From Escherichia coli O127:H6 str. E2348/69 (GTDB taxonomy: Bacteria > Pseudomonadota > Gammaproteobacteria > Enterobacterales > Enterobacteriaceae): DNA of 64,000 nucleotides. The notes under the pieces are model-generated. The model was not told the origin of the DNA. It did no database searches and was given only the letters and a program-made list of their open reading frames with translations. Every line of letters begins with the position of its first letter. Position 1 is the first letter of the stretch. The position numbers and the translations under genes were made by a program. The DNA lies in assembly GCF_000026545.1 (NCBI RefSeq), contig NC_011601.1; one strand, 5' to 3'. Shown piece after piece: positions 1 through 17,177 of this stretch.

Positions 1-60
1 TTAAGCGAAGTCATCCACGAAGCAGCAATGGCCTTGAATAATAAAGCATTACACGGATAA
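1..60 (+). CDS. Possible 3' end of an upstream gene truncated by the window edge (frame 1 ends ...LSEVIHEAAMALNNKALHG, stop at 58-60)
   Basis: Open frame from position 1 to TAA at 58-60, 21 nt before the RBS/ATG of the next gene; too short to identify; a different frame also ends at 39-41. Confidence 0.25.
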   Translation, partial: LSEVIHEAAMALNNKALHG

Positions 61-81
61 CACATACCACTGAGGGAATAT

Positions 82-1251
82 ATGAATTTACATGAGTATC
101 AGGCCAAATCGTTACTGGCTGGCATGGGGATGCCGTGTCCAAAAGAGATAGCCATCCAACAGATTTCGCAACTGGCAGATGCCTGGCAACATATTGCTTG
201 CCCGAGTAAAGGCGCGGTACTTAAAGCGCAGGTACATGCTGGTGGGCGCGGTAAAGCTGGCGGCGTAAAAGTGCTTAAGCAGCTGCCGGAAGCACAGGCT
301 TTTGTACAGCAAATGTTGGGATCGCAACTGGTGACTTATCAGACCGGGCCAGAAGGACAGTATGTCAGCAGTATTTTACTGTGCGAAAACATTTATCCGG
401 TACGCCAGGAACTCTATTTTGGCATGGTGGTGGATCGTGAAAGCCAGCGGGTCACGTTTATTGTCAGCCCGGAAGGTGGTGTGGAAATTGAAAAAGTCGC
501 CCATGAGACACCGGAGAAAATCAGCAGTGTCAGCATTGATCCACTGACAGGCGTGCAGCCTTGCCATATCCGAGAAATGTTTGCTGTTCTGCAACTGGAA
601 CACGGACTATTTGCTGCCTTTAGTCGCCTGGTTAATCAGGCGTGGAAAGCCTTTAACGAACTGGATTTTGCCCTGCTGGAAATTAACCCTCTGGTGTTGC
701 GGGAAACGGGCGAATTTATGTGTGCAGACGCGAAAGTATCGCTGGATGATAACGCGCTGTATCGTCACCCGGAACTCCAGGTGCTACGTGATGAAACCCA
801 GGAAGATCCACGCGAAAGCCAGGCAGCGAAGCTTGATCTTAATTATGTCTCGCTGGACGGAAATATCGGCTGCATGGTCAATGGTGCAGGGCTGGCTATG
901 GCAACCATGGACATCATCAAGCTATACGGTGAACAACCCGCAAACTTCCTGGATGTTGGCGGTGGCGCAACCCAGGAGCGCGTCAGTGAAGCCTTTCGGC
1001 TGATTGTTTCCGACGGCAAAGTGAAAGCCATTCTGGTTAATATTTTTGGTGGGATTGTCCGTTGCGACATGATCGCCAGAGCCATTATTCATGCTCTGAA
1101 TGAGGCCCGTATCACCCTGCCTGTCGTGGTGCGTCTCTCCGGTAATAACGCTGCCGAAGGGCAGCGGTTACTGGCAGAAAGTGGCCTGACGGTGGAAGCC
1201 GTCAATTCTCTGGATGATGCCGCTAAACGCATCATTGCGTTACTGAATTAA
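82..1251 (+). CDS. Succinyl-CoA synthetase beta subunit paralogue (ADP-forming, SucC-like), accessory island
   Basis: 389 aa; N-terminus MNLHEYQAKSLLAGMGMP is the classic SucC start; ATP-grasp-like sequence throughout; GAGGGAA RBS upstream; immediately followed by a SucD-like gene. Confidence 0.9.
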   Translation: MNLHEYQAKSLLAGMGMPCPKEIAIQQISQLADAWQHIACPSKGAVLKAQVHAGGRGKAGGVKVLKQLPEAQAFVQQMLGSQLVTYQTGPEGQYVSSILLCENIYPVRQELYFGMVVDRESQRVTFIVSPEGGVEIEKVAHETPEKISSVSIDPLTGVQPCHIREMFAVLQLEHGLFAAFSRLVNQAWKAFNELDFALLEINPLVLRETGEFMCADAKVSLDDNALYRHPELQVLRDETQEDPRESQAAKLDLNYVSLDGNIGCMVNGAGLAMATMDIIKLYGEQPANFLDVGGGATQERVSEAFRLIVSDGKVKAILVNIFGGIVRCDMIARAIIHALNEARITLPVVVRLSGNNAAEGQRLLAESGLTVEAVNSLDDAAKRIIALLN

Positions 1252-1263
1252 CAGGAGGTTAAG

Positions 1264-2136
1264 ATGAGCGTTTTGATCAACAAACACACGCGGGTACTGG
1301 TGCAGGGCATTACCGGCAAAAACGGCACATTTCATACAGAGCAGGCTATTGCGTATGGCACGCAGATTGTGGGTGGAGTGACGCCAGGTAAGGGCGGGCA
1401 ACGGCATCTGGATCGCCCGGTTTTTGATTCAATGAAAGAAGCGATGCGACAAACTGAGGCTGATGCCAGCGTGATTTATGTGCCTGCACCGTTTGTGCTG
1501 GATTCTGTTGTTGAGGCTATTGAAGCTGGCGTCAAATTGGTTGTGGTGATCACTGAAGGTGTACCGACACTGGATATGGTGAAAGTTCGTCGGCTGCTTG
1601 ACTGCCACCCGGATGTGCGGCTGATTGGGCCAAACTGCCCAGGAGTTATCACGCCGGGTGAGTGCAAAATCGGGATTATGCCTGGTGAAATCCACCGCCC
1701 AGGGCGTATTGGGATTGTTTCCCGCTCCGGTACATTAACCTACGAAGCTGTAGCGCAAACCACGGCGCTGGGACTTGGGCAATCCACCTGTATTGGTATT
1801 GGCGGCGATCCGGTTCCGGGGACTAACTTTATTGATGCGCTGCGTTTATTCGAAAATGATCCGCAAACAGACGCGGTAATTATGATCGGTGAAATTGGTG
1901 GTAATGCGGAAGAACGGGCCGCGGAATTTATTCGTCATGAAATGAATAAACCGGTCGTAGGTTATATTGCCGGTGTTACTGCACCAAAAGGAAAACGCAT
2001 GGGACACGCCGGAGCCATTATTTCTGGCGGTAGCGGCAGTGCGGAGGATAAATTCCGGGCGTTCGATAAAGCAGGCATGGCATGGACACGAAATCCAGCA
2101 TTACTTGGCGAAACGTTATGGAATGTTATTAAGTAA
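1264..2136 (+). CDS. Succinyl-CoA synthetase alpha subunit paralogue (SucD-like)
   Basis: 290 aa; CoA-binding N-terminus ([15 protein letters not shown]) and phospho-histidine loop GHAGAII; AGGAGG RBS at 1254-1259; 12 nt after the beta subunit stop. Confidence 0.9.
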
Positions 2137-2153
2137 TCCATAAATGAATATCA

Positions 2154-2179
2154 AGGGAGCATATCGCTCCCTTTTTTTA
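2154..2179 (+). terminator. Rho-independent terminator after the sucCD-like pair
   Basis: GC hairpin (GGGAGC...GCTCCC) followed by a run of seven T. Confidence 0.55.
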
Positions 2180-2212
2180 TCTGTGTGGTAAGGGAATCAT
2201 CTTTTAATAACT

Positions 2213-2230
2213 GTGCGGAAAACCGCGCAT
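2213..2230. promoter_or_regulatory. Palindrome TGTGCGGAAAACCGCGCA, candidate enhancer (UAS) for a sigma-54 activator
   Basis: Near-perfect inverted repeat about 65 bp upstream of the sigma-54 -24 element at 2292; sigma-54 activator sites are typically palindromic and upstream. Confidence 0.3.
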
Positions 2231-2291
2231 AAAATAAAAAGGATAAATAGCTAACTCATTAAATAACAAAGCGTTATTAAAAAATTAAAGA

Positions 2292-2307
2292 TGGCATAGC
2301 TCCTGCA
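2292..2307 (+). promoter_or_regulatory. Sigma-54 (RpoN) -24/-12 promoter, TGGCAT-N5-CTGCA, for the transporter/dehydrogenase genes
   Basis: GG at 2293-2294 and GC at 2305-2306 with exact 10-nt spacing; about 40 bp upstream of the transporter start; a sigma-54 activator is encoded nearby (4921-6279). Confidence 0.55.
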
Positions 2308-2347
2308 ATAGCCAGGCAGGTTTTTTATTTTTCACAATGAGGTGAAT

Positions 2348-3847
2348 ATGTCATCAATATCCCATGGCGCACCACAAAAGCGTCGAATTATCCCTAATCC
2401 CGGCCTGTGGTTGGCGATCATTGCCGGAATTATTATTACCCTTCTGCCACTGGGCGATACCTTGCCCGTCGCCGGACAAAATATGATCGCCATTCTGGTG
2501 TTTGCCATTATTGTCTGGATCAGCGAAGCGATGGATTACACCGCCAGTGCAATTGTTATTTCCGCACTGATTATCTTTATGGTTGGTTTTGCCCCGGATA
2601 TGAATCACCCGGACACGATCCTTGGCACCGCGAAAGCGCTGAAAATGACTCTGTCGGGTTTTTCTAATTCTGCTCTGGCGCTGGTGGCAGCAGCAATGTT
2701 TATCGCGGCGGCAATGACCATTACCGGGCTGGATAAACGCATTGCGCTGTTTACTATGTCGAAAATAGGTGCCAGCAGCCGCAGCATTATTATCGGTGCC
2801 ATTGTGGTGACCATCGTCCTGAGCCTGGTCGTACCCAGTGCCACTGCCCGTACGGCTTGCGTGGTGCCGATTATGATGGGGGTCATTGCGGCATTTAAGG
2901 TGGATAAACATTCACGTTTAGCGGCGTCAATGATGATTGTTATCGCCCAGGCGACCAGTATCTGGAAAGTTGGTATTCAAACTTCGGCGGCGCAAAACCT
3001 GCTTTCTATCGGTTTTATCAATAAAACTTTCGGCGCCGGGCATTCTGTCAGCTGGCTTGACTGGCTGTTAGCGGGCGCGCCCTGGAGCCTCACCATGTCG
3101 GTGATCCTCTATTTCCTCGCACGTAAATTGTTGCCGCCAGAAACGGAAGCTGTTGAAGGGGGGAGCGAGGCCATTAAAAAAGCACTCGCAGAGTTAGGGC
3201 CAACCACCGGTAAAGAAAAACGCTTGATCGGTATTTCGCTGTTGTTACTGCTCTTTTGGTCTACTGGCGGAAAATTGCACAGTATTGATACCACCTCTGT
3301 CACCCTTGCCGGACTGGCGATTATGTTGCTGCCAGGCATCGGTGTAATGAGCTGGAAAGAGGTCGAAAAACGTGTGCAGTGGGGCACGTTGCTTATGTTT
3401 GGTATTGGTATCAGCCTGGGGTCCACGTTGCTTGATACACAGGCAGCTTCATGGATGGCGAACTATGTGGTGAAAGGTTTTGGTCTCGATGGCTTGCCAT
3501 CATTAGCCATCTTCGCGATTCTCGCCGCTTTCTTGATAATCATTCACCTGGGGTTTGCCAGTGCCACTGCGCTAACTGCCGCATTGCTGCCCATCCTGAT
3601 TAGCCTGTTAAGCAGTCTGCCGCCAGAACTCGGCGTTAACCCGGTCGGCATGACCATTCTGCTCGCCTTCAGTGTCAGTTTTGGCTTCATCCTGCCGATT
3701 AACGCGCCACAAAATATGGTGTGTATGGGTACGGATACCTTCACGCCACGCCAGTTTACCCGTGTGGGACTGTACCTGACGGTGATCGGCTACCTGTTGT
3801 TGCTACTGTTTGCCGCCACCTGGTGGAAAATTTTAGGTCTAATGTGA
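2348..3847 (+). CDS. Anion transporter, probably divalent anion:Na+ symporter (DASS/CitT-like) family; candidate alpha-ketoglutarate/dicarboxylate importer
   Basis: About 499 aa, highly hydrophobic with many predicted TM helices; ATG at 2348 preferred over in-frame GTG at 2342 (AGG RBS at 2340-2342); family assignment from overall resemblance, not a search. Confidence 0.75.
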   Translation: MSSISHGAPQKRRIIPNPGLWLAIIAGIIITLLPLGDTLPVAGQNMIAILVFAIIVWISEAMDYTASAIVISALIIFMVGFAPDMNHPDTILGTAKALKMTLSGFSNSALALVAAAMFIAAAMTITGLDKRIALFTMSKIGASSRSIIIGAIVVTIVLSLVVPSATARTACVVPIMMGVIAAFKVDKHSRLAASMMIVIAQATSIWKVGIQTSAAQNLLSIGFINKTFGAGHSVSWLDWLLAGAPWSLTMSVILYFLARKLLPPETEAVEGGSEAIKKALAELGPTTGKEKRLIGISLLLLLFWSTGGKLHSIDTTSVTLAGLAIMLLPGIGVMSWKEVEKRVQWGTLLMFGIGISLGSTLLDTQAASWMANYVVKGFGLDGLPSLAIFAILAAFLIIIHLGFASATALTAALLPILISLLSSLPPELGVNPVGMTILLAFSVSFGFILPINAPQNMVCMGTDTFTPRQFTRVGLYLTVIGYLLLLLFAATWWKILGLM

Positions 3848-3858
3848 GGAAACCAACG

Positions 3859-4932
3859 ATGTCATTACAAATTGCTGTTGAAAAAGTGCGTTGGTTAGCT
3901 GCCGGGCTGCTGGAACTTAATGGCTGTGATGCCGATATCGCTCAGGATGTGGCGGAACATATGATTGAAGCGGAACGTTATGGTTTTGCCAGCCACGGCG
4001 TCACGCTGCTACCGAAATATCTGGAAAATATCGCTCGTGGCGATGTAACCGCGAATGCCCGCCCGGAATGCTTAACAAGTGAAGGTAATTTACAACGTTT
4101 TCATGCCCACAATGGCTTTGGTCAACACGCCGGAAAAGTGGCGGTAAATGCTGCCATCGAACAAACAAAACACCGCGGTTTTTGCCTGTTAACGTTGTGC
4201 CATGCGCATCATTTAGGGCGTATGGGGCATTACGGGCAAATGGTTGCTGATCAAGGCCTGGCGATGCTGGCCATGAGTAACGTCACCGGGCGTCCGGCAC
4301 TGGTCGCCCCGTGGGGCGGTGCGGAACCGCGTATGACCACTAACCCTTTCTGCTTTGCCTGGCCGTTCAGTGATGGGCGTCCGCCGATTCTGGTTGATTT
4401 TGCCACCAGTAGCATGGCGCTAAATAAAGCACGGGTAATGTCGTCCACCGGGAAGCAGGCCGCGCCGGGACAATTGATCGATGCACAGGGGAATCCAAGC
4501 AATGATCCTGGGGTGTTATTCAGCAATCCTCCAGGGGCGTTACTGCCATTTGGTGAGCATAAAGGATTTGGCCTGGCACTGATGATTGAAATGATGGCGG
4601 GGATCTTATCTGGTGGTGACACGATCGCCGAAGATCATCAGACGGATGGATCTGCGCATAATCATCTTTTTGCGTTGATTATCGATCCTGATCAATTCAC
4701 CGATCTGGCAGGGGAGAAAGGGCAGTTCTTTGCGGATTATCTGTTAGCTACGCAGCCTCAACCTGGCGGCAATCCGGTGATTTACCCCGGTATGCCAGAA
4801 GCTGCCAACCGGGAACGCAATGCGAAGATGATTACGATCCCGGTATCATTCTGGTCCTGGGTAGTTGAACATTACGCCCGCAAAGGTATCGATTTGGGGT
4901 TACATCCTCAGGAATCAGCATTAGCTGGATGA
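3859..4932 (+). CDS. Ldh2-family (malate/L-lactate/ureidoglycolate dehydrogenase-like) NAD(P)-dependent oxidoreductase
   Basis: 357 aa from ATG 3859, with GAGGAA RBS 9 nt upstream and 11 nt after the transporter stop; the track ORF 3721-4932 has an N-terminal extension overlapping the transporter and is rejected; conserved HGxxxxPKY-type region (FASHGVTLLPKY). Confidence 0.75.
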   Translation: MSLQIAVEKVRWLAAGLLELNGCDADIAQDVAEHMIEAERYGFASHGVTLLPKYLENIARGDVTANARPECLTSEGNLQRFHAHNGFGQHAGKVAVNAAIEQTKHRGFCLLTLCHAHHLGRMGHYGQMVADQGLAMLAMSNVTGRPALVAPWGGAEPRMTTNPFCFAWPFSDGRPPILVDFATSSMALNKARVMSSTGKQAAPGQLIDAQGNPSNDPGVLFSNPPGALLPFGEHKGFGLALMIEMMAGILSGGDTIAEDHQTDGSAHNHLFALIIDPDQFTDLAGEKGQFFADYLLATQPQPGGNPVIYPGMPEAANRERNAKMITIPVSFWSWVVEHYARKGIDLGLHPQESALAG

Positions 4933-6279
4933 TTCTGGTCGATAAACTTGCGGTTGAATCTGATGTTTGTTGAGTTTGTCATATAAAGTCTTGCGCGGCA
5001 GCTGTAATAGCCGCGCTGTCAAACTGACCTGGCCTTCCGTTTGTCGCAGCATATCTTCGATTAACTTTTTCTCGAAAGCATCAATGCAGGCGGTAAGGCC
5101 ACTCTCTTCTTGCTGAGTCATTGGTACTGGCTGGTGGTGGGTCAGTAAACCGAGAACAAAACGCTCTGCATTGTGTTTAAGTTCACGTACATTGCCAGGC
5201 CAACTTTGTGACTGCAACCAGGCCAGTAACATGGGAGAAATATCAGGCAGAGGACGATTATATTTTTGTGCCGCCTGACTGGCGAACCAGTAAAACAGTT
5301 CAGGGATATCTTCTCGTCGTTGGCGTAGAGGTGGAATATTCAGGCTAACCACATTCAGACGATAATAGAGATCGAGACGAAACAGATGTTCTTCGCTGCG
5401 ACGCAGTAAATCTTCCTTGGTCGCTGCAATAACACGGCAATTCACCGGAATTAATTGATTGGCACCTAATCGTTCAATGGTTCTTTCCTGCAATACACGT
5501 AGCAGTTTTACCTGCATTCCTGATGGCATTCCCTCTATTTCATCGAGAAATAACGTACCACCATTTGCATGTTCAATTTTTCCAATACGCTTTTTAACCG
5601 CACCGGTAAATGCGCCCGCCTCATGACCAAATATTTCGCTTTCAAACAACGTTTCTGGTAAGCCTGCACAGTTTAAGGCAACAAACTGCCCCTGACGGCG
5701 GGTACTCCAGTGATGCAGCATTCTGGCGACGACTTCTTTACCACAACCTGTTTCACCATAAATAAGGACATCGGCACCGGTATCTGCGACATTAAGGATC
5801 ATTTTACGCAGTTGTTGCATCTGCGGACTACGACCAATCAGCACCGGGCCATTTTCCTGTTGCAGATTCGCCAGTAATTGCTGATTTTCTAAAACCAATC
5901 GCCGTTTTTCTACCGCTCTGGCAATAATACTCAATAATTTATCTGAGCTACTTGGTTTCTCAATGAAATCGAATGCACCATTACGCATGGCATCCACCGC
6001 CATTTCCACGTCACCGTGTCCGGTAATTAAAATAACCGGAATTTTGCTATCCATTTCGTTGATGTAACTGAGGAGCTCTAGTCCTGATATTCCAGGTAAC
6101 CTGACATCGGTCAGTATAATAATGTTGGCCTGACTTTGAATAAGGGGAATACTGTGTTCTGCATCGCAACAGGAAATAACACGATAACCAGCCAGCGTGA
6201 GCGTTTGTTCACAGGCAAAACGTACATCGTCACTATCCTCAATATAAACTATAGTAATTTCACTGGATTTATTATTCAT
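4921..6279 (-). CDS. kguR: Sigma-54-dependent response regulator (NtrC family: receiver + AAA+ sigma-54 activator + HTH); consistent with KguR
   Basis: 452 aa; receiver domain with conserved D (IIILTDVRLPG); Walker A GETGCGKE; GAFTGA sigma-54 contact motif; C-terminal HTH; stop overlaps the 3' end of the convergent dehydrogenase gene. Confidence 0.8.
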   Translation of the reverse strand: MNNKSSEITIVYIEDSDDVRFACEQTLTLAGYRVISCCDAEHSIPLIQSQANIIILTDVRLPGISGLELLSYINEMDSKIPVILITGHGDVEMAVDAMRNGAFDFIEKPSSSDKLLSIIARAVEKRRLVLENQQLLANLQQENGPVLIGRSPQMQQLRKMILNVADTGADVLIYGETGCGKEVVARMLHHWSTRRQGQFVALNCAGLPETLFESEIFGHEAGAFTGAVKKRIGKIEHANGGTLFLDEIEGMPSGMQVKLLRVLQERTIERLGANQLIPVNCRVIAATKEDLLRRSEEHLFRLDLYYRLNVVSLNIPPLRQRREDIPELFYWFASQAAQKYNRPLPDISPMLLAWLQSQSWPGNVRELKHNAERFVLGLLTHHQPVPMTQQEESGLTACIDAFEKKLIEDMLRQTEGQVSLTARLLQLPRKTLYDKLNKHQIQPQVYRPESSS

Positions 6280-8092
6280 GTTCTTCTCCCCATTCAGGCC
6301 AGGTTAATGTCATTACTGCGCCGCCTTCAGGATGATTACTGGCGTGGAGTGCGCCGTTCGAATTTCGGACAATTTCGCTGACTATTGCCAGTCCCAACCC
6401 CATTCCTCTACGTTTAGTGGTAAAAAATGGTTCAAATATGCGATCGACAACTTCAGGTGCAAAACCGCCACCGCTGTCTTTAATGGTAATAATAACTTTG
6501 TTATTTGCCTGGCGAATGGCGATATCCAGTCGTTTGTAAGAGCTACCTTCCATAGAATCTAAGGCGTTGCTAATTAAATTACTGAATATCTGTTCAAGAC
6601 CGAGCTCATCGCAATTGACAAATAACGGCATGGATGGGGCTTTTATTCGTCGCTCAATATTATTTTTCTCCATGCTGTGATTAAGTAACGCCACGGCGCT
6701 ATACATCACTTTGATGACATCGGCAGAACCTTTAGGTACGCGATGGCGCGAGGCAAATGCTTTAAGTTCGGAAATGAGCTGCGTCATCCGCTCAATCACT
6801 GAAATAATGTGTTTCAGATTCTGTTCAACCTGCGGATACATCTCTTTTTTTAGCATAGTACGCGCGTTATCAGTAAGTGCGTGAATGGCGGCTAACGGTT
6901 GATTTTGTTCATGGGCAATTTCGGTTGCCATCTGTCCAAGCGCCGCCAGTTTGCTGGACTCTGCCAGTTCACTACGCGTAATTTGTAATACTTGTTCAGC
7001 CTGACTGCGCTCTTTTATCTCCTGTATTAATTTTTGATTGATCAATTCCAGGGCAGATGTACGCTCTTTAACCTGTTTCTCTAATGTTTCATTCGCCAGT
7101 GTTAATAATTGTTGTGCATGAGATCGCATTCTCCAGTATTTAATAAATAACAAAAACAGCAGGTAAATAATTAGCGTAATGACTAACGAAATAGCCCATG
7201 ACCAGTACAGGTTATCTAAGGGGACCATAATTGTCATTTTCCAGTTAAATTCTGGAATGGCTATTTGTTGCGTATAATATTGCGGGAATAAACAGAGTTG
7301 TTCTTTTTTATCTTTCAGGAAAGTAAAATTGCTCACGGTATAACAGGGATAATAATCCGCCGGTAAAAGATTGTCGAGACTATATTGGCGGGTAGATTGT
7401 AGTTTTTGTTTTGCCTGAACAGGTAACGGTTGCAGTGTTCGCATTCGCCATGGCGATTTTGAACTTAAAAATATAATCCCATGTTCATCATTCACGATAA
7501 TATTTTCAGGACCTTCGGCCCATGCTTTTTCAATTTCATTAAGACTTATTTTTACTACTACAACACCGACAATTTTTCCTTTATCTTTTATACTTGTAGA
7601 GAGGAAGAATCCCGGTGTATTCGTAGTGCTACCAATACCGTAAAAGCGTCCATTTAAGCCAGACATGGCGTGTTTATAATAGGGGCGATAGCTATAATTT
7701 TGCCCTACATAGCTGCCGGGGTCCTGCCAGTTGCTAGAAGCGATGGCCTTACCTTGGGTATCCAGAATAAATATTGCTGCGGTTTTGAGTTGAGTATTGA
7801 AATGTGCAATTCGTTGATTGAGTTCGCTGGACATCATATCGTCAGGCGTAATTACCGCCTGACGGATGATATGGTCTGTTGAGAGCATATAGGGTAAAAC
7901 ATAAAATTGCTCGATGGTGGAATATAATGTGGACTTATACATTTCAAGCCGCATTTTATCGGTACCGGACAAGGTATTAAAACGCAAGTGCAAAAAAGCG
8001 ATTGAAACCGCGAGCATGATAAGAAAAAGTGAAATGCTTGTAATGTGAAATCGCCATTTGTTCTTAAATATATAATTCCACGATATTTTCAT
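6272..8092 (-). CDS. kguS: Membrane sensor histidine kinase with periplasmic sensing domain; consistent with KguS
   Basis: 606 aa; two TM segments flanking a roughly 260-aa periplasmic region; H-box (ATEIAHEQNQPL) and HATPase_c motifs; 8-nt overlap with the downstream regulator gene. Confidence 0.8.
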   Translation of the reverse strand: MKISWNYIFKNKWRFHITSISLFLIMLAVSIAFLHLRFNTLSGTDKMRLEMYKSTLYSTIEQFYVLPYMLSTDHIIRQAVITPDDMMSSELNQRIAHFNTQLKTAAIFILDTQGKAIASSNWQDPGSYVGQNYSYRPYYKHAMSGLNGRFYGIGSTTNTPGFFLSTSIKDKGKIVGVVVVKISLNEIEKAWAEGPENIIVNDEHGIIFLSSKSPWRMRTLQPLPVQAKQKLQSTRQYSLDNLLPADYYPCYTVSNFTFLKDKKEQLCLFPQYYTQQIAIPEFNWKMTIMVPLDNLYWSWAISLVITLIIYLLFLLFIKYWRMRSHAQQLLTLANETLEKQVKERTSALELINQKLIQEIKERSQAEQVLQITRSELAESSKLAALGQMATEIAHEQNQPLAAIHALTDNARTMLKKEMYPQVEQNLKHIISVIERMTQLISELKAFASRHRVPKGSADVIKVMYSAVALLNHSMEKNNIERRIKAPSMPLFVNCDELGLEQIFSNLISNALDSMEGSSYKRLDIAIRQANNKVIITIKDSGGGFAPEVVDRIFEPFFTTKRRGMGLGLAIVSEIVRNSNGALHASNHPEGGAVMTLTWPEWGEEHE

Positions 8093-8272
8093 TCATCATC
8101 CATTGAATGCATTTATATTTATCATCAGTATATTCCCTGAACAATGTTTGCGAGAACCAAAAGAGTGCCATTGTGTGAATGTGTAAGCAGAATAACCGTG
8201 GCAATGTGTGGTTTATCGCACAGGTATTCCAAATGTGATCATGCTCTTTTTATGTGACAAATCCGCAGATAA

Positions 8273-9082
<810 letters not shown>

Positions 9083-9087
9083 CAGAG

Positions 9088-9124
9088 CGGGAGAGCGTAA
9101 TACTCTCCCGAATGCTGTTTTTTT
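9088..9124 (+). terminator. Rho-independent terminator after aphA
   Basis: Hairpin CGGGAGAG...CTCTCCCG followed by a T-run. Confidence 0.6.
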
Positions 9125-9192
9125 AATCACACCTTTATCCTTTCGCTGTCTTGCTGCAAACTGATTAAGAGAGTTTTATCAAGGAGCAGCAC

Positions 9193-9609
9193 ATGTGGTA
9201 TCAAAAGACGCTCACGCTTAGCGCCAAATCTCGTGGGTTTCATCTGGTAACGGATGAAATTCTGAATCAGCTGGCTGATATGCCGCGCGTTAACATCGGC
9301 TTACTGCATCTGTTGCTGCAACATACCTCCGCCTCTCTGACACTTAATGAGAACTGCGATCCCACCGTACGCCACGACATGGAGCGTTTTTTCCTCCGCG
9401 CCGTTCCCGATAACGGAAATTATGAGCATGACTATGAGGGAGCAGACGATATGCCTTCTCATATCAAATCCTCAATGCTGGGAACATCGCTTGTATTGCC
9501 GGTGCATAAAGGGCGTATTCAGACCGGCACCTGGCAAGGCATCTGGCTGGGGGAACATCGCATCCACGGCGGATCGCGTCGCATCATCGCGACACTACAA
9601 GGGGAGTGA
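9193..9609 (+). CDS. yjbQ: UPF0047 family protein YjbQ
   Basis: 138 aa, recognised sequence and K-12 position. Confidence 0.85.
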
Positions 9610-9612
9610 AAA

Positions 9613-9969
9613 ATGACCATTTCGGAGTTGCTACAATATTGCATGGCAAAACCAGGCGCAGGACAGAGCGTGCATAACGACTGGAAAGCGACGCAGATCA
9701 AAGTGGAAGATGTGCTGTTTGCGATGGTGAAAGAAGTAGAAAATCGCCCAGCTGTTTCGCTGAAAACCAGCCCGGAGCTGGCGGAGCTGCTACGTCAGCA
9801 GCACAGCGATGTGCGTCCAAGCCGCCATCTGAATAAAGCGCACTGGAGCACCGTGTATCTCGACGGTTCGCTGCCGGATTCGCAAATCTATTATCTGGTG
9901 GATGCGTCTTATCAGCAGGCGGTGAATTTGCTGCCGGAAGAAAAACGTAAATTGCTGGTGCAACTCTGA
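9613..9969 (+). CDS. yjbR: Conserved protein YjbR (MmcQ/YjbR family)
   Basis: 118 aa, 4 nt after yjbQ; K-12 position. Confidence 0.85.
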   Translation: MTISELLQYCMAKPGAGQSVHNDWKATQIKVEDVLFAMVKEVENRPAVSLKTSPELAELLRQQHSDVRPSRHLNKAHWSTVYLDGSLPDSQIYYLVDASYQQAVNLLPEEKRKLLVQL

Positions 9970-9975
9970 AAGAAG

Positions 9976-9998
9976 AAGGCCGCTCTGAAAGCGGCCTT
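9976..9998. terminator. Bidirectional terminator hairpin between convergent yjbR and uvrA
   Basis: Perfect hairpin AAGGCCGCT-CTGAA-AGCGGCCTT. Confidence 0.55.
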
Positions 9999-10003
9999 AA
10001 CGA

Positions 10004-12826
10004 TTACAGCATCGGCTTGAGGAAGCGCGCCGTATGCGAAGCTTCGCACTCTGCGACGGTTTCTGGCGTACCGGAGACGAGGATTTCGCCGCCCCCACTG
10101 CCGCCTTCCGGTCCCAGGTCGACAATCCAGTCAGCGGTTTTGATCACGTCGAGATTGTGCTCAATTACCACAATGGTATTGCCCTGATCGCGCAGTTTAT
10201 GCAGTACGTCGAGCAGTTGCTGAATATCGGCGAAGTGCAGACCGGTGGTCGGCTCGTCGAGAATATACAGCGTCTGCCCGGTGCCGCGTTTTGACAGCTC
10301 ACGCGCCAGCTTCACGCGCTGGGCTTCACCACCAGAAAGTGTGGTTGCGGACTGCCCGAGGCGAATGTACGTCAGGCCAACATCCATCAGCGTTTGCAGC
10401 TTACGCGCCAGAGCTGGCACCGCATCAAAGAACTCACGCGCCTCTTCGATGGTCATATCCAGCACTTCGTGGATGGTTTTGCCTTTGTACTTAATCTCCA
10501 GCGTTTCACGGTTATAGCGTTTGCCTTTGCACTGGTCGCACGGTACGTAAATGTCCGGCAGGAAGTGCATCTCCACTTTGATCACGCCGTCGCCCTGACA
10601 GGCCTCGCAGCGTCCGCCACGGACGTTAAAGCTGAAACGTCCTGGCGTATAGCCGCGCGCACGGGATTCCGGTACGCCCGCAAACAGTTCGCGCACAGGT
10701 GTAAACACGCCGGTATAGGTCGCCGGGTTAGAACGAGGAGTACGACCAATTGGGCTTTGGTCGATATCGATCACTTTATCGAAATGCTCCAGTCCCTGAA
10801 TATCGCGATACGGTGCCGGTTCGGCGATGGTCGCACCATTCAACTGGCGTTGGGCAATCGGGAACAGTGTGTCGTTAATCAGCGTGGATTTACCGGAACC
10901 CGAAACCCCAGTAATACAGGTAAACAGACCAACTGGCAGCGTTAGCGTCACATCTTTCAGGTTGTTGCCGCGTGCGCCCGTCAGTTTCAGCACTTTTTCC
11001 GGATTTGCCGGAACGCGTTTCTTCGGCACTTCAATCTTGCGTTTACCGCTCATGTACTGCCCGGTCAACGACTCAGGCACCGCCATAATTGCTTCCAGTG
11101 GACCTTCCGCGACCACTTCACCGCCGTGAACACCCGCACCCGGACCGATATCGATCACATGATCAGCGGCGCGAATCGCGTCTTCGTCGTGCTCCACCAC
11201 AATCACGGTATTACCGAGATCGCGCAGATGGATAAGCGTACCCAACAGGCGCTCGTTATCGCGCTGGTGCAGGCCGATAGACGGCTCATCCAGCACGTAC
11301 ATCACGCCAACCAGGCCTGCACCAATCTGGCTCGCCAGACGAATACGCTGGGCTTCACCGCCGGAAAGTGTCTCTGCCGAGCGGGAAAGTGTCAGGTAAT
11401 TCAGGCCGACGTTAACGAGGAATTTCAGACGATCGCCGATCTCTTTAAGGATTTTTTCTGCAATCTTCGCCCGCTGACCTGCGAGTTTGAGATTGTTGAA
11501 GAATTCCATCGCATGACCGATGCTCATGTCGGAGATGGCGGGCAGCGGCGTATTCTCGACATACACGTGGCGTGCTTCCCGACGCAGACGGGTTCCTTCG
11601 CAGCTGGCGCACGGACGATTGCTGATAAACTTGGCTAATTCTTCACGTACCGCACTGGATTCCGTCTCTTTATAACGGCGCTCCATATTGTGCAGCACGC
11701 CTTCGAACGGATGACGACGAATGGAGGTATCGCCACGATCGTTCATGTATTTGAATTCAATATTTTCTTTGCCAGAACCGTACAACACCACTTTATGCAC
11801 GTTCGCGCTCAGGCTGCCCCACGGCGCTTCGACGTCGAACTTATAGTGATCTGCCAGCGATTTCAGCATCTGGAAATAATAGAAGTTGCGGCGATCCCAG
11901 CCACGGATCGCACCGCCAGCCAGCGACAATTCCGGATTCTGGATCACGCGGTCAGGATCGAAATATTGCTGTACGCCAAGACCGTCACAGGTCGGGCAGG
12001 CTCCCGCCGGGTTGTTAAATGAAAACAGGCGAGGTTCCAGCTCGCGCATACTGTAACCGCAAATCGGGCAGGCAAAGTTGGCGGAGAACAGCAGCTCTTC
12101 CGCTTTCGGGTCGTCCATATCCGCCACTACCGCGGTACCACCGGAAAGCTCCAGCGCGGTTTCAAACGACTCGGCAAGACGTTGGGTAAGATCGTCACGC
12201 ACTTTGAAGCGATCAACCACCACTTCAATGGTATGTTTCTTTTGCAGTTCCAGTTTCGGCGGATCGGAAAGATCGCAGACTTCGCCATCAATACGAGCAC
12301 GGATGTAACCCTGGCTTGCCAGGTTCTCCAGCGTTTTGGTGTGTTCGCCTTTGCGCTCTTTAATGATTGGCGCGAGCAGCATCAGACGCTTGCCTTCCGG
12401 CTGGGACAACACGTTATCCACCATCTGACTGACGGTTTGCGCCGCCAGCGGTACATCGTGGTCCGGGCAGCGTGGCTCACCAACGCGAGCGTACAGCAGA
12501 CGCAAATAGTCGTGGATTTCGGTGATTGTCCCCACCGTAGAGCGCGGGTTATGAGACGTCGATTTCTGCTCAATTGAGATGGCAGGAGAAAGCCCTTCAA
12601 TATGGTCGACGTCCGGCTTCTCCATCAGTGACAGAAACTGCCGCGCGTAGGCGGAAAGGGATTCAACGTAACGGCGCTGCCCTTCGGCATATAAGGTGTC
12701 GAAAGCGAGCGAGGATTTGCCAGAACCCGAAAGCCCGGTCACGACAATAAGCTTGTCGCGGGGGATAACGAGGTTGATGTTTTTGAGATTATGGGTGCGG
12801 GCGCCCCGAACTTCGATCTTATCCAT
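10004..12826 (-). CDS. uvrA: Excinuclease ABC subunit A (UvrA)
   Basis: 940 aa; N-terminus [19 protein letters not shown]; two ABC ATPase modules and zinc-finger cysteines. Confidence 0.97.
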
Positions 12827-12909
12827 TCACCTTTCCCGGATTAAACGCTTTTTTGCCCGGTGGCATGGTGCTACCGGCGATCACAAACGGTTAATTATGA
12901 CACAAATTG

Positions 12910-12929
12910 ACCTGAATGAATATACAGTA
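12910..12929. promoter_or_regulatory. LexA (SOS) box shared by divergent uvrA and ssb promoters
   Basis: ACCTGAATGAATATACAGTA, i.e. CTG-N10-CAG with AT-rich centre; lies in the uvrA-ssb divergent intergenic region. Confidence 0.75.
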
Positions 12930-13080
12930 TTGGAATGCATTACCCGGAGTGTTGTGTAACAATGTCTGGCCAGGTTTGTTTCCCGGAACCGAGGTCACAA
13001 CATAGTAAAAGCGCTATTGGTAATGGTACAATCGCGCGTTTACACTTATTCAGAACGATTTTTTTTCAGGAGACACGAAC

Positions 13081-13617
13081 ATGGCCAGCAGAGGCGTAAA
13101 CAAGGTTATTCTCGTTGGTAATCTGGGTCAGGACCCGGAAGTACGCTACATGCCAAATGGTGGCGCAGTTGCCAACATTACGCTGGCTACTTCCGAATCC
13201 TGGCGTGATAAAGCGACCGGCGAGATGAAAGAGCAGACTGAATGGCACCGCGTTGTGCTGTTCGGCAAACTGGCAGAAGTGGCCAGCGAATATCTGCGTA
13301 AAGGTTCTCAGGTTTATATCGAAGGCCAGCTGCGTACCCGCAAATGGACCGATCAATCCGGTCAGGATCGCTACACCACAGAAGTCGTGGTGAACGTTGG
13401 CGGCACCATGCAGATGTTGGGTGGTCGTCAGGGTGGTGGCGCTCCTGCAGGTGGCAATATCGGTGGTGGTCAGCCGCAGGGCGGTTGGGGTCAGCCTCAG
13501 CAGCCGCAGGGTGGCAATCAGTTCAGCGGCGGCGCGCAGTCTCGCCCGCAGCAGTCCGCTCCGGCAGCGCCGTCTAACGAGCCGCCGATGGACTTTGATG
13601 ACGATATTCCGTTCTGA
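13081..13617 (+). CDS. ssb: Single-stranded DNA-binding protein SSB
   Basis: 178 aa; [28 protein letters not shown]... with Gly/Gln-rich tail and C-terminal DFDDDIPF. Confidence 0.97.
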
Positions 13618-13680
13618 TTTGTCATTAAAACAATAGGTTATATTGTTTTAAGGTGGATGATTAAAGCATCTGCCAGCCAT

Positions 13681-13712
13681 AAAAAAGAAGCCTCCGTTAT
13701 GGAGGCTTCTAC
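13681..13712. terminator. Terminator hairpin between convergent ssb and yjcB
   Basis: Hairpin GAAGCCTCC-GTTAT-GGAGGCTTC flanked by A-run. Confidence 0.5.
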
Positions 13713-13715
13713 ATA

Positions 13716-13997
13716 TCAAGTCAAAATCATTGGCCATTGTGGCGGTGTCTGATTCATCTCTTCTACCATCACCGACTCGATGTTGTGCCAGATGGCGGTG
13801 ATATCCGCCATTGTGATGCCAAGCAACCCCATTGCGAACCAGCAGGCGGAAACTACGCCTAGACCGCTGCTGATCACTGCAAGCCCGACATAATCAGCCC
13901 GACGAAAACGGATGTTGAGCGTGCTAGCCAGAAACATCATTACGGCACTAAGAAGTTGCCAGCGAAGAAGAACCACGCCAGTGGTGAGGGTAGCCAT
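13716..13997 (-). CDS. yjcB: Small inner-membrane protein YjcB
   Basis: 93 aa from MATLTTGVVLLRW; hydrophobic; K-12 position; longer track ORF rejected. Confidence 0.7.
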   Translation of the reverse strand: MATLTTGVVLLRWQLLSAVMMFLASTLNIRFRRADYVGLAVISSGLGVVSACWFAMGLLGITMADITAIWHNIESVMVEEMNQTPPQWPMILT

Positions 13998-14425
13998 CAA
14001 ACAATTCCTCGGAAAAGAGCTGATGCCCTGGACAGCGCGGCGTTGTTCACGGGAGGCGTGATACACTCTGGCTATCGCGGGGCTTGCAGAACACAAAAAT
14101 GAAACACTCTGTTTGTTTCATGAATTTTGTGAACTATATCACAATTGGTTGTTTGTTAGCCAGATTAGGCCGTGACTTTTATTGCCGTACAGATTATGTG
14201 TTTTTTCAGCGGCATTAAGGGTATATCTTTCCGCCGCCTCTGCATTCCTGAAGGTGATTAATTTTTAAGATCAATGAATTATCGTCATCCTGGTGACGAT
14301 TAAAAAGGTCTCAATTTTATATCAGGCAAAAGTGCTATTTATACCGTAAGATTTATCTAAAGACGTCGGTAGCCAGGGTTTCACCTTGCAATAACCGGGT
14401 ATAAACAGGCAGGGAATTGATAGCA

Positions 14426-15979
14426 ATGAGTCATCGTGCACGACACCAATTACTGGCGTTTCCGGGCATTATCTTTTTAGTTCTCTTTCCCATCATTCTG
14501 TCGCTATGGATTGCCTTCTTTTGGGCAAAATCAGAAGTGAATAATCAGCTCCGAATCTTTGCTCAGCTGGCGTTGGATAAATCTGAGCTGGTCATTCGTC
14601 AGGCAGATTTAGTGAGCGATGCAGCTGAACGCTATCAGGGGCAAGTTTGCACTCCAGCCCATCAAAAGCGAATGTTGAATATTATTCGTGGCTATCTTTA
14701 TATTAATGAATTGATTTATGCTCGTGATAACCATTTTTTATGCTCATCGCTGATAGCGTCTGTAAATGGCTATACGATTGCACCGGCCGATTATAAGCGC
14801 GAACCTAACGTTTCTATCTATTATTACCGTGATACGCCTTTTTTCTCTGGCTATAAAATGACCTACATGCAGCGGGGAAATTATGTGGCGGTTATCAACC
14901 CTCTCTTCTGGAGTGAAGTGATGTCTGATGATCCGACATTGCAATGGGGTGTGTATGATACGGTGACGAAAACCTTTTTCTCGTTAAGCAACGAGGCCTC
15001 GGCAGCAACGTTTTCTCCGCTGATTCATTTGAATGATTTAACCGTACAACGAAATGGCTATTTATATGCGACAGTTTATTCGACAAAACGCCCAATTGCA
15101 GCCATTGTTGCGACTTCATATCAACGTCTTATAACTCATTTTTATAATCATCTTATTTTTGCGTTGCCCGCCGGTATTTTGGGGAGTCTTGTTCTGCTAT
15201 TACTCTGGCTACGTATTCGACAAAACTATTTGTCTCCCAAACGCAAATTGCAACGCGCCCTCGAAAAACATCAACTTTGCCTTTATTACCAGCCAATAAT
15301 CGATATCAAAACAGAAAAATGTATCGGCGCTGAAGCGTTGTTACGTTGGCCTGGTGAGCAGGGGCAAGTAATGAATCCGGCAGAGTTTATTCCGCTGGCA
15401 GAAAAGGAGGGGATGATCGAACAGGTAACTGATTATGTTATTGATAATGTCTTCCGTGATTTGGGCGCGTATCTGGCAACACATACCGATCGCTATGTTT
15501 CTATTAACCTGTCAGCCTCCGATTTTCATACCTCACGGTTGATAGCGCGAACCAATCAGAAAACAGAGCAACATGCGGTGCGCCCGCAGCAAATTAAATT
15601 TGAAGTGACTGAACATGCATTTCTTGATGTCGACAAAATGACGCCGATTATTCTGGCTTTCCGCAAGGCCGGTTACGAAGTGGCAATTGATGATTTTGGT
15701 ATTGGCTACTCTAACTTGCATAACCTTAAATCATTGAATGTCGATATTTTGAAAATCGATAAATCGTTTGTTGAGACGCTGACCACCCACAAAACCAGTC
15801 ATTTGATTGCGGAACACATCATCGAGCTGGCGCACAGCCTGGGATTAAAAACGATCGCTGAAGGTGTCGAAACTGAGGCGCAGGTTAACTGGCTGCGCAA
15901 ACACGGCGTGCGCTATTGCCAGGGATGGTTTTTTGCGAAGGCGATGCCGCCGCAGGTGTTTATGCAATGGATGGGGTAA
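14426..15979 (+). CDS. pdeC: Cyclic-di-GMP phosphodiesterase PdeC (CSS sensory domain + EAL)
   Basis: About 517 aa from ATG 14426 (track start 14417 is a TTG); N-terminal TM, periplasmic CSS region, second TM, C-terminal EAL domain; exact C-terminus not verified against K-12. Confidence 0.85.
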
Positions 15980-15981
15980 TT

Positions 15982-16005
15982 ACCCGCGCGGGAGTTAACG
16001 CGCGG
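15982..16005. terminator. Bidirectional terminator hairpin between convergent pdeC and soxS
   Basis: Hairpin CCCGCGCG-GGAGTTAA-CGCGCGGG. Confidence 0.55.
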
Positions 16006-16014
16006 GCAATAAAA

Positions 16015-16338
16015 CTACAGGCGGTGGCGATAATCGCTGGGAGTGCGATCAAACTGCCGACGGAAAACGCGGGAGAAGGTCTGCTGAGAGACATAACCCA
16101 GGTCCATTGCGATATCAAAAATCGGACGCTCGGTGGTGCGCAACTCAACGGCGGCCAGTAACAGACGGCGCTGGCGAATGTAATCGCCAAGCGTCTGATG
16201 CGTCACCGTGCGGAACATCCGTTGCAAGTACCACTTTGAATAGCCAGATTTTTTTGCGACGACATCAATGTTAAGCGGCTGGTCAATATGCTCGTCAATC
16301 CATGCGATAAGATCCTGAATAATTTTCTGATGGGACAT
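16015..16338 (-). CDS. soxS: Superoxide-response transcriptional activator SoxS (AraC family)
   Basis: 107 aa; MSHQKIIQDLIAWIDEHIDQPLNIDVVAKKSGYSKWYLQRMF... Confidence 0.97.
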   Translation of the reverse strand: MSHQKIIQDLIAWIDEHIDQPLNIDVVAKKSGYSKWYLQRMFRTVTHQTLGDYIRQRRLLLAAVELRTTERPIFDIAMDLGYVSQQTFSRVFRRQFDRTPSDYRHRL

Positions 16339-16394
16339 AAATCTGCCTCTTTTCAGTGTTCAGTTCGTTAATTCATCTGTTGGGGAGTATAATT

Positions 16395-16412
16395 CCTCAA
16401 GTTAACTTGAGG
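16395..16412. promoter_or_regulatory. SoxR operator in the soxS promoter spacer
   Basis: Perfect 18-bp palindrome CCTCAAGTTAACTTGAGG in the soxS-soxR divergent intergenic region. Confidence 0.85.
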
Positions 16413-16423
16413 TAAAGCGATTT

Positions 16424-16888
16424 ATGGAAAAGAAATTACCCCGCATTAAAGCGCTGCTAACCCCCGGCGAAGTGGCGAAACGCAGCGGTGTGGCGGTATC
16501 GGCGCTGCATTTCTATGAAAGCAAAGGGTTGATTACCAGTATCCGTAATAGCGGCAATCAGCGGCGATATAAACGTGATGTGTTGCGATATGTCGCAATT
16601 ATCAAAATTGCTCAGCGTATTGGCATTCCGCTCGCAACCATTCGTGAAGCGTTTGGCGTGTTGCCAGAAGGGCATACGTTAAGTGCGAAAGAGTGGAAAC
16701 AGCTTTCGTCCCAATGGCGAGAAGAGTTGGATCGGCGCATTCATACCTTAGTGGCGCTGCGTGACGAACTGGATGGATGTATTGGTTGTGGCTGCCTTTC
16801 GCGCAGTGATTGCCCGTTGCGTAACCCGGGCGACCGATTAGGAGAAGAAGGTACCGGCGCACGCTTACTGGAAGATGAACAAAACTAA
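16424..16888 (+). CDS. soxR: Redox-sensing [2Fe-2S] MerR-family regulator SoxR
   Basis: 154 aa; MerR HTH N-terminus and C-terminal [12 protein letters not shown] cluster-binding motif. Confidence 0.97.
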
Positions 16889-17021
16889 AGCGCCACAAGG
16901 GCGCTTTAGTTTGTTTTCCGGTCTTTGTCTTTCTCTCTATCCCGCTGGTACACAGGAGGGTTTCCCCCGACGTCAACACACCTCATTCGAGCACGTGGTG
17001 GAGGTTCCGGTTGGTGTTGAT
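16882..17021 (-). ncRNA. ryjA: Candidate small RNA RyjA/SraL, antisense to and overlapping the soxR 3' end
   Basis: K-12 has an sRNA of about 140 nt here from memory; a TACAAT -10-like hexamer on the minus strand at 17033-17028; hairpin + T-run at 16887-16917 serves as a shared terminator; boundaries approximate. Confidence 0.4.
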
Positions 17022-17161
17022 GCTTTAATTGTATGTTACCGGCGTTTCTTCGCCAGTGTAAAAGTACACTTTTTAGCCGCAATATTTTTGTCATCTCAGA
17101 CGATTTTTTATCGCAATCCTGAACGGTATACGGCTCGATAACGCTGCAATCTTGCGCATCG

Positions 17162-17177
17162 ACGATAACGTTTGCGC
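17162..17177. promoter_or_regulatory. PurR-box-like palindrome upstream of ghxP
   Basis: ACGATAACGTTTGCGC matches ACGCAAACGTTTGCGT at 13 of 16 positions; weaker copies near 17304-17319 and 17264-17279. Confidence 0.35.

Follow-up and report, generated by a model that had tools for sequence, protein, structure and literature searches.

The window, that is the whole stretch of 64,000 nucleotides analysed here, very probably carries at positions 1-8262, to judge from its sequence, the right-hand part (from the 3′ end of c5035 to c5041) of the KguS/KguR alpha-ketoglutarate (KG) cluster in EPEC E2348/69. No observation speaks against this identification. This is an already published system, first described in UPEC CFT073 between tyrB and aphA (Cai et al. 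2013, PMC3694859), which enables some E. coli to grow anaerobically on KG, a host metabolite, and the only twist is its host, an EPEC gut pathogen and not a urinary-tract strain. As a discovery it has little weight, since papers of 2013 to 2021 already cover the system with its regulator and promoters as well as what it contributes to fitness in the urinary tract, and the E2348/69 copy is near-identical. Two testable loose ends concern what C5039 does and a substitution private to the transporter of E2348/69.

Gene content and chromosomal position

The annotated loci of E2348/69 and CFT073 are collinear, and the gene order c5035-c5041 of the latter is reproduced at window positions 1-8092. The full cluster consists of E1-E2-E3-sucC-sucD, a DASS-Ldh_2 pair and the convergent kguR-kguS, of which the window begins at the 3′ end of E3. 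Bases 1-60 (plus strand) are the 3′ end of the lpdA paralogue (E3, dihydrolipoyl dehydrogenase, c5035) of the 2-oxoglutarate dehydrogenase operon, according to the RefSeq annotation of the E2348/69 locus, with the same gene in CFT073; its stop, at window position 60, is position 8060 of the annotated locus. Thus the cluster runs past the left edge, as an earlier note on this DNA had it, and continues there with E1, E2 and E3 following tyrB in the annotated locus, which supports the match to the KguS/KguR island made in that note. Its inventory is likewise borne out: a second sucC/sucD, an anion transporter, an Ldh2-family dehydrogenase and a convergent kinase and NtrC-type regulator all lie before aphA, the six genes are intact, and order, position and sequence all match c5035-c5041 of CFT073.

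Set against CFT073, the six complete island proteins show 99-100% identity. For KguR and SucD the two strains have one and the same RefSeq WP accession, and the other four differ at six amino acids in total (KguS 604/606, DASS 498/499, Ldh 355/357 and SucC 388/389 identical), one of them being the transporter substitution N207K. Chance matching is of no concern here, because the genes are full-length and score above the curated cut-offs of NCBIfam, and a sequenced genome matches the DNA at 100% identity.

Comparison of the tyrB-aphA spacers confirms the expected contrast with K-12, where the order at the same place is tyrB - yjbS - aphA and about 1 kb carrying yjbS stands in place of the island. 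The left junction of the island DNA lies inside the last ~55 bp of tyrB. On the right, alignment of the K-12 spacer with the E2348/69 flanks places the point where K-12 homology upstream of aphA (8369-9082, plus strand) resumes at 8230-8262; island-specific DNA therefore does not end at 8092, as first supposed, but takes in the kguS promoter and reaches about 8230-8262.

The sucC paralogue (c5036, 82-1251, plus strand) encodes a succinyl-CoA synthetase beta subunit (NF001913, 530 bits against a cut-off of 370) and the sucD paralogue (c5037, 1264-2136, plus strand) the alpha subunit (NF004230, 470 bits against 336). Adjacent beta and alpha genes, both above equivalog cut-offs, identify an ADP-forming succinyl-CoA synthetase. 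The two proteins share 56% and 69% identity, respectively, with housekeeping SucC and SucD of K-12, and a K-12 sucCD query matched 5425 of the 5426 complete E. coli genomes. The island enzymes belong to the same families, and catalyse the same reactions, as the housekeeping SucAB-Lpd and SucCD, from which they differ as separate paralogues whose expression, known from CFT073, is anaerobic and dependent on KG, KguR and sigma-54; sucABCD is repressed anaerobically (PMC3694859). The c5032-c5037 operon is closed at 2153-2180 (plus strand) by an intrinsic terminator-like hairpin and T-run, AAGGGAGC-ATAT-GCTCCCTT followed by TTTTTAT, identical in CFT073.

Two-component system, promoters and inducer

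The regulatory genes kguR (c5040, 4921-6279) and kguS (c5041, 6272-8092) are both on the minus strand. KguR displays the features of an NtrC-type sigma-54 enhancer-binding response regulator, namely a receiver with its phospho-acceptor Asp, an AAA+ sigma-54 domain and a C-terminal Fis-type HTH: Pfam places Response_reg at residues 10-119, Sigma54_activat at 147-313, AAA_lid_14, and HTH_8 at 401-438, and the translation contains GAFTGA, a Walker A motif (GETGCGKE) and the receiver Asp58. KguS has the layout of a DctB-like membrane sensor kinase, with a periplasmic double-Cache (PDC) domain followed by HisKA and HATPase_c (dCache_1 50-228, HisKA 385-448 and HATPase_c 495-600). Over residues 41-292 it matches the sensor domain of DctB in the structures 2zbb and 3e4o (E about 1e-32), and its membrane topology is as given for CFT073 (PMC3694859).

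Two known systems offer themselves for comparison. Like rhizobial DctB/DctD, the pair combines a DctB homologue with an NtrC-type sigma-54 activator switching on a dicarboxylate transporter. However, the inducer of KguSR is the C5 keto-acid KG (CFT073, PMC3694859) instead of succinate or malate, its transporter is a DASS member instead of DctA, and its regulon takes in a whole set of catabolic enzymes. Similarly, Pseudomonas aeruginosa MifS/MifR is a KG-responsive two-component system controlling the transporter PA5530, with a sigma-54-dependent enhancer-binding regulator required for KG transporter expression; by its description in PMC5318444, in contrast, no dedicated 2-oxoglutarate dehydrogenase and succinyl-CoA synthetase are reported under its control (PMC5318444).

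The published KguR consensus is TGTG(T/C)G-N5-15-C(G/A)C(G/A)CA (PMC8716947). Searching the window with it gave exact matches at two places in the cluster. The first, TGTGCGGAAAACCGCGCA at 2212-2229, identical in CFT073, is the predicted KguR operator of c5038, an upstream activating sequence for its promoter. The second, TGTGTGGTTTATCGCACA at 8205-8222, an exact match on both strands, is the predicted operator for autoregulation in the kguSR promoter; the intergenic region upstream of kguS is 100% identical to that of CFT073, where KguR bound the kguSR promoter by EMSA (PMC8716947). A third match, at 56115-56132, was set aside: it lies inside an rpiB-like coding region, and 1.5 matches per window are expected by chance.

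The sigma-54 promoter of c5038-c5039, TGGCATAGCTCCTGCA with -24 GG and -12 GC, was located by motif search at 2292-2307 (plus strand). The predicted start point A2318 is 30 nt before the ATG at 2348, the same distance as the 5′-RACE start mapped for c5038 in CFT073, where expression is RpoN-dependent (PMC5318444). CFT073 has the same last 92 bases of the c5037-c5038 spacer (positions 2256-2347), in which the sigma-54 motif and the start point lie; the ten substitutions of this spacer fall in its AT-rich upstream part, none in any identified site. Since a sigma-54 consensus scan of the 64 kb window returned 38 matches against 45 expected by chance, the number of matches is meaningless, and the site at 2292-2307 is the only one with support, which comes from where it lies and from the start point published for CFT073. 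The c5032 promoter of E2348/69 carries TGGTACGGATTGTGCA and differs from that of CFT073 at 1 of 181 bases. A sigma-54-like match at 8155-8170, upstream of kguS, is poor and devoid of the -12 GC, and was discarded as a promoter. Scans for sigma-70 promoters and terminators stayed at background level with the exception of the sucD terminator, and an Rfam search of positions 1-9600 gave no known RNA family.

In the proposed working of the system, KguS would respond through its DctB-like periplasmic double-Cache sensor to external KG and phosphorylate KguR. The latter would bind inverted repeats TGTGYG-N6-CRCRCA that precede the sigma-54 promoters of c5032-c5037 and c5038-c5039, as well as at its own promoter, and activate them, anaerobic control being added by FNR and ArcA. 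C5038 would import KG, probably against succinate, and the paralogous 2-oxoglutarate dehydrogenase (E1, E2, E3) together with the SucC/SucD paralogues would convert it to succinate, CO2, NADH and ATP while the housekeeping sucABCD is repressed by anaerobiosis. The experiments behind this scheme come from CFT073: induction by KG, dependence on KguS, KguR and RpoN, KguR EMSA, mapping of the transcription start, growth on KG under anaerobiosis, and mouse fitness (PMC3694859, PMC5318444, PMC8716947). For E2348/69, the identity of the genes, their order, position, promoters and operators are established, and from this likeness we infer that the system works there as in CFT073.

Could it rather be a general system for C4-dicarboxylate uptake and catabolism of the DctB/DctD type, not specific for KG? 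The periplasmic domain of KguS shows clear homology to DctB, a sensor of succinate and malate (E about 1e-32), and DASS relatives transport succinate, malate, citrate and tartrate. Yet in CFT073 c5032 and c5038 are induced by KG only and not by succinate, fumarate, glutamate, glutarate or 2-hydroxyglutarate, and the mutants grow normally on succinate, fumarate and malate (PMC3694859). The co-regulated 2-oxoglutarate dehydrogenase and succinyl-CoA synthetase, moreover, act on KG. We consider a general C4-dicarboxylate function highly improbable and retain KG as the probable inducer.

The transporter C5038 and its partner C5039

The gene c5038 (2348-3847, plus strand), encoding the presumed anaerobic KG importer, was taken to start at the ATG at 2348, following RefSeq and the published start codon; the mechanical ORF starts at a GTG at 2342. 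Its product exceeds the cut-off of the DASS (TC 2.A.47) family model (TIGR00785, 240.3 bits against 198.6) and matches VcINDY, LaINDY-type and DiT chains, with E from 1e-18 to 1e-22 for the solved LaINDY-type and DiT chains. In VcINDY-type symporters, two Ser-Asn-Thr (SNT) motifs at the tips of hairpins help to bind Na+ and substrate. Both positions are Ser-Ala-Thr (SAT) in C5038 and all orthologues examined, so that the two-SNT signature of a sodium-coupled symporter is missing. The RefSeq name 'sodium-coupled symporter', given from family membership alone, is therefore a family label and not a supported mechanism. Nor would it be new to recognize C5038 as a Na+-independent exchanger: its SAT motifs have already been noted and substrate/product exchange with succinate proposed (PMC5318444). 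C5038 belongs to the same DASS family as the exchangers CitT and TtdT of E. coli, LaINDY and the plant 2-oxoglutarate/malate translocators DiT1/DiT2, from which it differs by having SAT at both SNT motifs; exchange of KG in for succinate out is probably its mode.

Codon 207 of c5038 (2966-2968) encodes Lys in E2348/69 and Asn everywhere else examined, that is in all 12 other loci (CFT073, UTI89, the next closest genome 382634_2f, E. albertii, three Citrobacter, K. indica, Salmonella, Pectobacterium, Vibrio and Bordetella). N207 sits within the motif AQATSIWNVGIQT, invariant from E. coli to Bordetella, which aligns with the segment SIGGIATLVGSPPN in the transport domain of VcINDY, and its replacement could weaken or alter uptake. 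By blocking or changing KG uptake, this private substitution might have left E2348/69 with a cluster that is present but functionally impaired, a decaying locus in a gut pathogen, and disrupted copies do exist in E. coli: that of strain E12 has an ISEcp1 insertion, and that of EcPF7 is truncated. Against this, every reading frame is intact, all promoters and operators are conserved, and proteins often tolerate one surface change that looks conservative. Impairment is thus unlikely, and we keep to a cluster that probably works as in CFT073.

The gene c5039 (plus strand) was taken as 3859-4932, the mechanical ORF (3721-4932) being over-extended. Its product is an Ldh_2-family (PF02615) NAD(P)-dependent oxidoreductase, 355/357 identical to that of CFT073, whose membership is at family level: the best NCBIfam model, of the YbiC type (NF007504), gives 276.6 bits, below its cut-off of 336, other models score far lower, and none of the YbiC, AllD, DlgD and ComC equivalog cut-offs is reached. 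It has the PF02615 fold of E. coli YbiC (PDB 2g8y), its best solved relative (E 5e-52), and is about 45% identical to a Cupriavidus necator protein named L-lactate dehydrogenase. It differs from other Ldh_2 enzymes in forming its own clade, always encoded directly after a C5038-type DASS gene in the clusters examined.

We propose, tentatively and with more doubt than conviction, that C5039 might be an NAD(P)H-dependent 2-oxo-acid reductase converting KG to 2-hydroxyglutarate, as an obligate partner of C5038. Consistent with this, the DASS-Ldh_2 pair is adjacent in every orthologous cluster examined; in Bordetella it stands alone, without dehydrogenase genes or two-component system; and source records name relatives of C5039 'L-lactate dehydrogenase' (Cupriavidus necator) or 'hydroxycarboxylate dehydrogenase B'. 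If so, the island would be a self-contained KG dismutation module, in which one KG would be oxidised to succinate, CO2, ATP and NADH and a second one reduced, re-oxidising NADH, with the products leaving by exchange. In the CFT073 kguR mutant, moreover, the level of a compound annotated as 2-hydroxyglutarate drops about 6-fold (PMC8716947 Table 2). As succinate and glutamate fall as well, this drop is not specific evidence for C5039; it may simply reflect reduced KG uptake.

Origin and distribution of the cluster

The E2348/69 locus does not look like a classical mobile genomic island: no integrase or transposase gene is present in the annotated locus, no tRNA gene within 25 kb, and no flanking direct repeats, the longest word common to both borders being 8 bases. 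In E. albertii and Citrobacter the cluster is again a neighbour of aphA-yjbR-uvrA-ssb, and in Klebsiella indica it adjoins aphA, whereas it is found at another locus in Pectobacterium, between IS (transposase) genes in Salmonella, and rearranged in Vibrio. E. coli shares a conserved cassette with all of these, which bears on whether it was acquired or retained.

As far as origin is concerned, it may be an old enterobacterial locus and not a recent pathogenicity-type island. B2 E. coli, E. albertii, some Citrobacter and K. indica would have kept it beside aphA, while in other E. coli an AT-rich yjbS segment would have taken its place. The shared position next to aphA and the lack of integrase, tRNA gene and flanking repeats favour such an ancestry, as does the nucleotide identity of the island genes, which tracks that of flanking core genes (86-94% against 88-95% for comparison with E. 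albertii, 73-84% against 80-89% with Citrobacter). On the other hand, the different settings in Pectobacterium, Salmonella and Vibrio imply that the cluster does move, a pattern scan did not find it in most Enterobacteriaceae, the GC content of kguS and kguR is 41-45% against 51-54% for the enzyme genes, and horizontal transfer has been argued from the c5038 tree (PMC5318444). An old locus is accordingly a serious possibility, although we lean somewhat against it; the identity of the cluster as the KguS/KguR system is the same under either origin.

Among 5426 complete E. coli genomes, the island is present in 1044-1045 (about 19%) and the K-12-type allele with yjbS in 4331-4356; no K-12-like strain among them has this gene set here, an arrangement that would have contradicted the initial reading. 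Compared with CFT073, E2348/69 has the same genes, order, orientation and chromosomal position, and conservation extends to the sigma-54 promoter with its start point and to the two KguR operators. It differs as an EPEC strain, a pathotype in which the original survey detected kguS/kguR in 0 of 39 isolates (PMC3694859).

The suggestion that the island marks the strain as ExPEC-like does not hold. E2348/69, the one genome to which the window is 100% identical, is an intestinal pathogen of phylogroup B2 (PMC4464170), and the island also turns up in the mouse strains NC101 and MP1 and in isolates from dogs, a bat, water and human faeces. Being intact in the prototype EPEC strain and present in faecal, animal and water isolates, the island is not pathotype-specific and is unsuited as a UPEC or ExPEC marker. 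A B2-type background is the better reading of what it marks, on the basis of E2348/69 and the strains recognised in a 60-row sample of 1044 carriers.

The island of E2348/69 and its counterpart in CFT073

The ORF list and family searches recovered all the genes that the earlier note had named for 1-8092. Downstream of the 3' end of an lpdA-type E3 gene, which occupies the first 60 bases of the window in the RefSeq annotation of the locus, lie paralogues of sucC (82-1251) and sucD (1264-2136), both exceeding the curated equivalog cut-offs. They are followed by genes for a DASS transporter (2348-3847, true start ATG 2348) and an Ldh_2-family oxidoreductase (3859-4932, true start 3859). A sigma-54 response regulator (kguR, 4921-6279) and a sensor kinase (kguS, 6272-8092) are encoded on the strand opposite to the enzyme genes, and the ORF list places aphA next, at 8369-9082.

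In the uropathogenic strain CFT073, the c5032-c5041 island sits between tyrB and aphA and is under KguS/KguR control (Cai et al. 2013, PMC3694859). E2348/69 and CFT073 share the order tyrB / E1 E2 E3 sucC sucD / DASS Ldh_2 / kguR kguS (opposite strand) / aphA; the island does run past the left edge of the window, as had been proposed, with E1, E2 and E3 following tyrB. The two strains share one RefSeq protein accession for KguR and one for SucD, and identity to CFT073 reaches 604/606 residues for KguS, 498/499 for the transporter, 355/357 for the Ldh_2 protein and 388/389 for SucC. Gene order, position and protein identities thus support the earlier attribution to the KguS/KguR island, and the system of the window is one already known. 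Over bases 1-9200, three assemblies of E2348/69 (O127:H6) match the window at 100% identity, and the nearest other genomes are 99.6% identical. Bases 1-17200 of the window show no difference from the E2348/69 locus used for the comparison.

K-12 indeed lacks the island at this place, where its order is tyrB, yjbS, aphA. Since the alignment shows an AT-rich K-12 segment of about 1 kb, with yjbS in it, in the place of the island, the difference is a replacement rather than a pure insertion. The left junction falls inside the final ~55 bp of tyrB, in a patch that diverges much more strongly than the remainder of that gene, and the right junction at about window 8230-8262. A search of the island locus for an integrase, a tRNA gene and flanking repeats found none.

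A second strain-specific difference lies just left of the island, outside the window: pnuC and an AAA-family ATPase gene are directly upstream of tyrB in the fetched loci of E2348/69 (L001 1-1242) and CFT073 (L004 10288-11846). In CFT073 they separate alr from tyrB, which have no gene between them in K-12. GC content is 44.5% in kguR and 40.7% in kguS (together 4921-8092), against 51-54% in those cluster genes that encode the enzymes and the transporter and 52% in the whole window.

Regulatory sites and proteins

The sucD-DASS spacer contains a terminator hairpin (2153-2180), an inverted repeat TGTGCGGAAAACCGCGCA (2212-2229) that fits the published KguR consensus exactly (PMC8716947), and a sigma-54 motif TGGCATAGCTCCTGCA (2292-2307). 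A2318, 30 nt 5' of the DASS ATG, coincides with the start point of CFT073 c5038, which was mapped by 5'-RACE and whose expression is RpoN-dependent (PMC5318444). The ten differences from CFT073 in this spacer all fall between elements, leaving terminator, KguR site, sigma-54 motif and start point unchanged. The second published KguR site is found as a consensus match at 8205-8222 in the kguS-aphA spacer, which is 100% identical to that of CFT073; EMSA had shown KguR autoregulation via this kguS-promoter site (PMC8716947). A third exact match to the consensus (56115-56132, minus strand) was rejected: it lies inside an rpiB-like coding region, and 1.5 matches per window are expected by chance.

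The c5032 promoter, which lies beyond the left edge of the window, carries TGGTACGGATTGTGCA. About 175 bp upstream of its sigma-54 motif, at the 3' end of tyrB (L001 2450-2474), another KguR-consensus match, TGTGTGTCGCCGGGCTTAACGCGCA, has its second half-site within the tyrB patch diverged from K-12. An aromatic amino acid transaminase was listed among the genes with putative KguR sites in 2021 (PMC8716947). Judged by position, the match looks more like an upstream activating sequence of the c5032 operon.

KguS displays dCache_1, HisKA and HATPase_c domains, and its residues 41-292 match solved DctB sensor domains (E about 1e-32). KguR combines receiver, sigma-54 AAA+, AAA+ lid and Fis-type HTH domains, with GAFTGA, Walker A and Asp58 all present. 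Identity to the housekeeping proteins of K-12 is 56% for the SucC paralogue and 69% for the SucD paralogue; as a K-12 sucCD query finds matches in 5425/5426 genomes, the island sucC and sucD are second copies.

The transporter, C5038, aligns with VcINDY, LaINDY-type and plant DiT chains and has Ser-Ala-Thr in place of both Ser-Asn-Thr motifs, a feature already noted by authors who proposed KG (alpha-ketoglutarate)/succinate exchange (PMC5318444). Codon 207 (window 2966-2968) encodes Lys in E2348/69 and Asn in every other copy examined: those of CFT073, UTI89 and the closest further E. coli genome, and orthologues out to that of Bordetella, which has an overall identity of only 61%. This change, private to E2348/69 among these copies, lies inside the otherwise invariant motif AQATSIWNVGIQT and may or may not affect transporter function.

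C5039, the Ldh_2 protein, scores under the cut-offs of all characterised subfamilies, and its gene is always directly 3' of the transporter gene. In the CFT073 kguR mutant, a compound annotated as 2-hydroxyglutarate is ~6-fold lower, and succinate and glutamate fall too (PMC8716947). C5039 might be a KG reductase serving as a redox sink, which is a reasonable hypothesis.

From the near-identity with CFT073, where the steps were shown, we infer that the system would work similarly in E2348/69. KguS would sense KG and activate KguR (PMC3694859), which would turn on both sigma-54 operons and kguSR itself, FNR and ArcA adding anaerobic control. KG brought in by C5038 would then be converted by the paralogous dehydrogenase complex and succinyl-CoA synthetase to succinate, CO2, NADH and ATP while sucABCD is repressed.

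Distribution among E. coli pathotypes and in other genera

Of 5426 complete E. coli genomes, 1044-1045 have DNA specific to the island, always as a single copy and with at least 98.9% identity, and 4331-4356 have the K-12-type segment, so the locus has essentially two alleles. Among the carriers are UTI89, EC958/ST131 and avian pathogenic strains, as well as the mouse isolates NC101 and MP1 and human faecal, dog, bat and water isolates. The original survey by PCR detected island genes in 0/39 EPEC, and the island was called absent from intestinal pathogens (PMC3694859). E2348/69, the prototype enteropathogenic strain, of phylogroup B2 (PMC4464170), bears it intact, with window 1-8262 as its right-hand part, so the published absence does not hold for this strain. 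The earlier note took the island as marking an 'ExPEC-like' strain. E2348/69 is unlike K-12 here, as it said; because the island is intact in an EPEC and found in faecal, animal and water isolates, however, it is better stated, going by the named strains, as a sign of a 'B2-type background'.

Damaged copies also exist in E. coli: in E12 an ISEcp1 element lies within the match, under which the annotation shows no DASS gene, and in EcPF7 the match covers only 68% of the query and stops inside kguR. Another match lies on a plasmid record.

Beyond E. coli, the cluster adjoins aphA-yjbR-uvrA-ssb in E. albertii and three Citrobacter species, and aphA in Klebsiella indica; its nucleotide divergence is about that of the flanking core genes. 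Ancient retention of the cluster, with loss, is a possible but tentative reading as against repeated transfer. The complete nine-gene cluster is also found in Pectobacterium aroidearum, at another locus that has an ntrC-like gene on one side and hemN/polA on the other, and on a Salmonella enterica contig with transposase genes on its flanks. The cluster is rearranged in a Vibrio, and Bordetella has the DASS-Ldh_2 gene pair only.

Two database records stand apart. A 'Flavobacteriia' MAG contig, whose protein identities to the island almost equal those of the Vibrio sp. Y2-5 locus, is probably mis-binned. A 252-bp contig labelled Chryseobacterium mucoviscidosis, whose 83 encoded residues match E. 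coli KguS at 100% identity, probably represents contamination.
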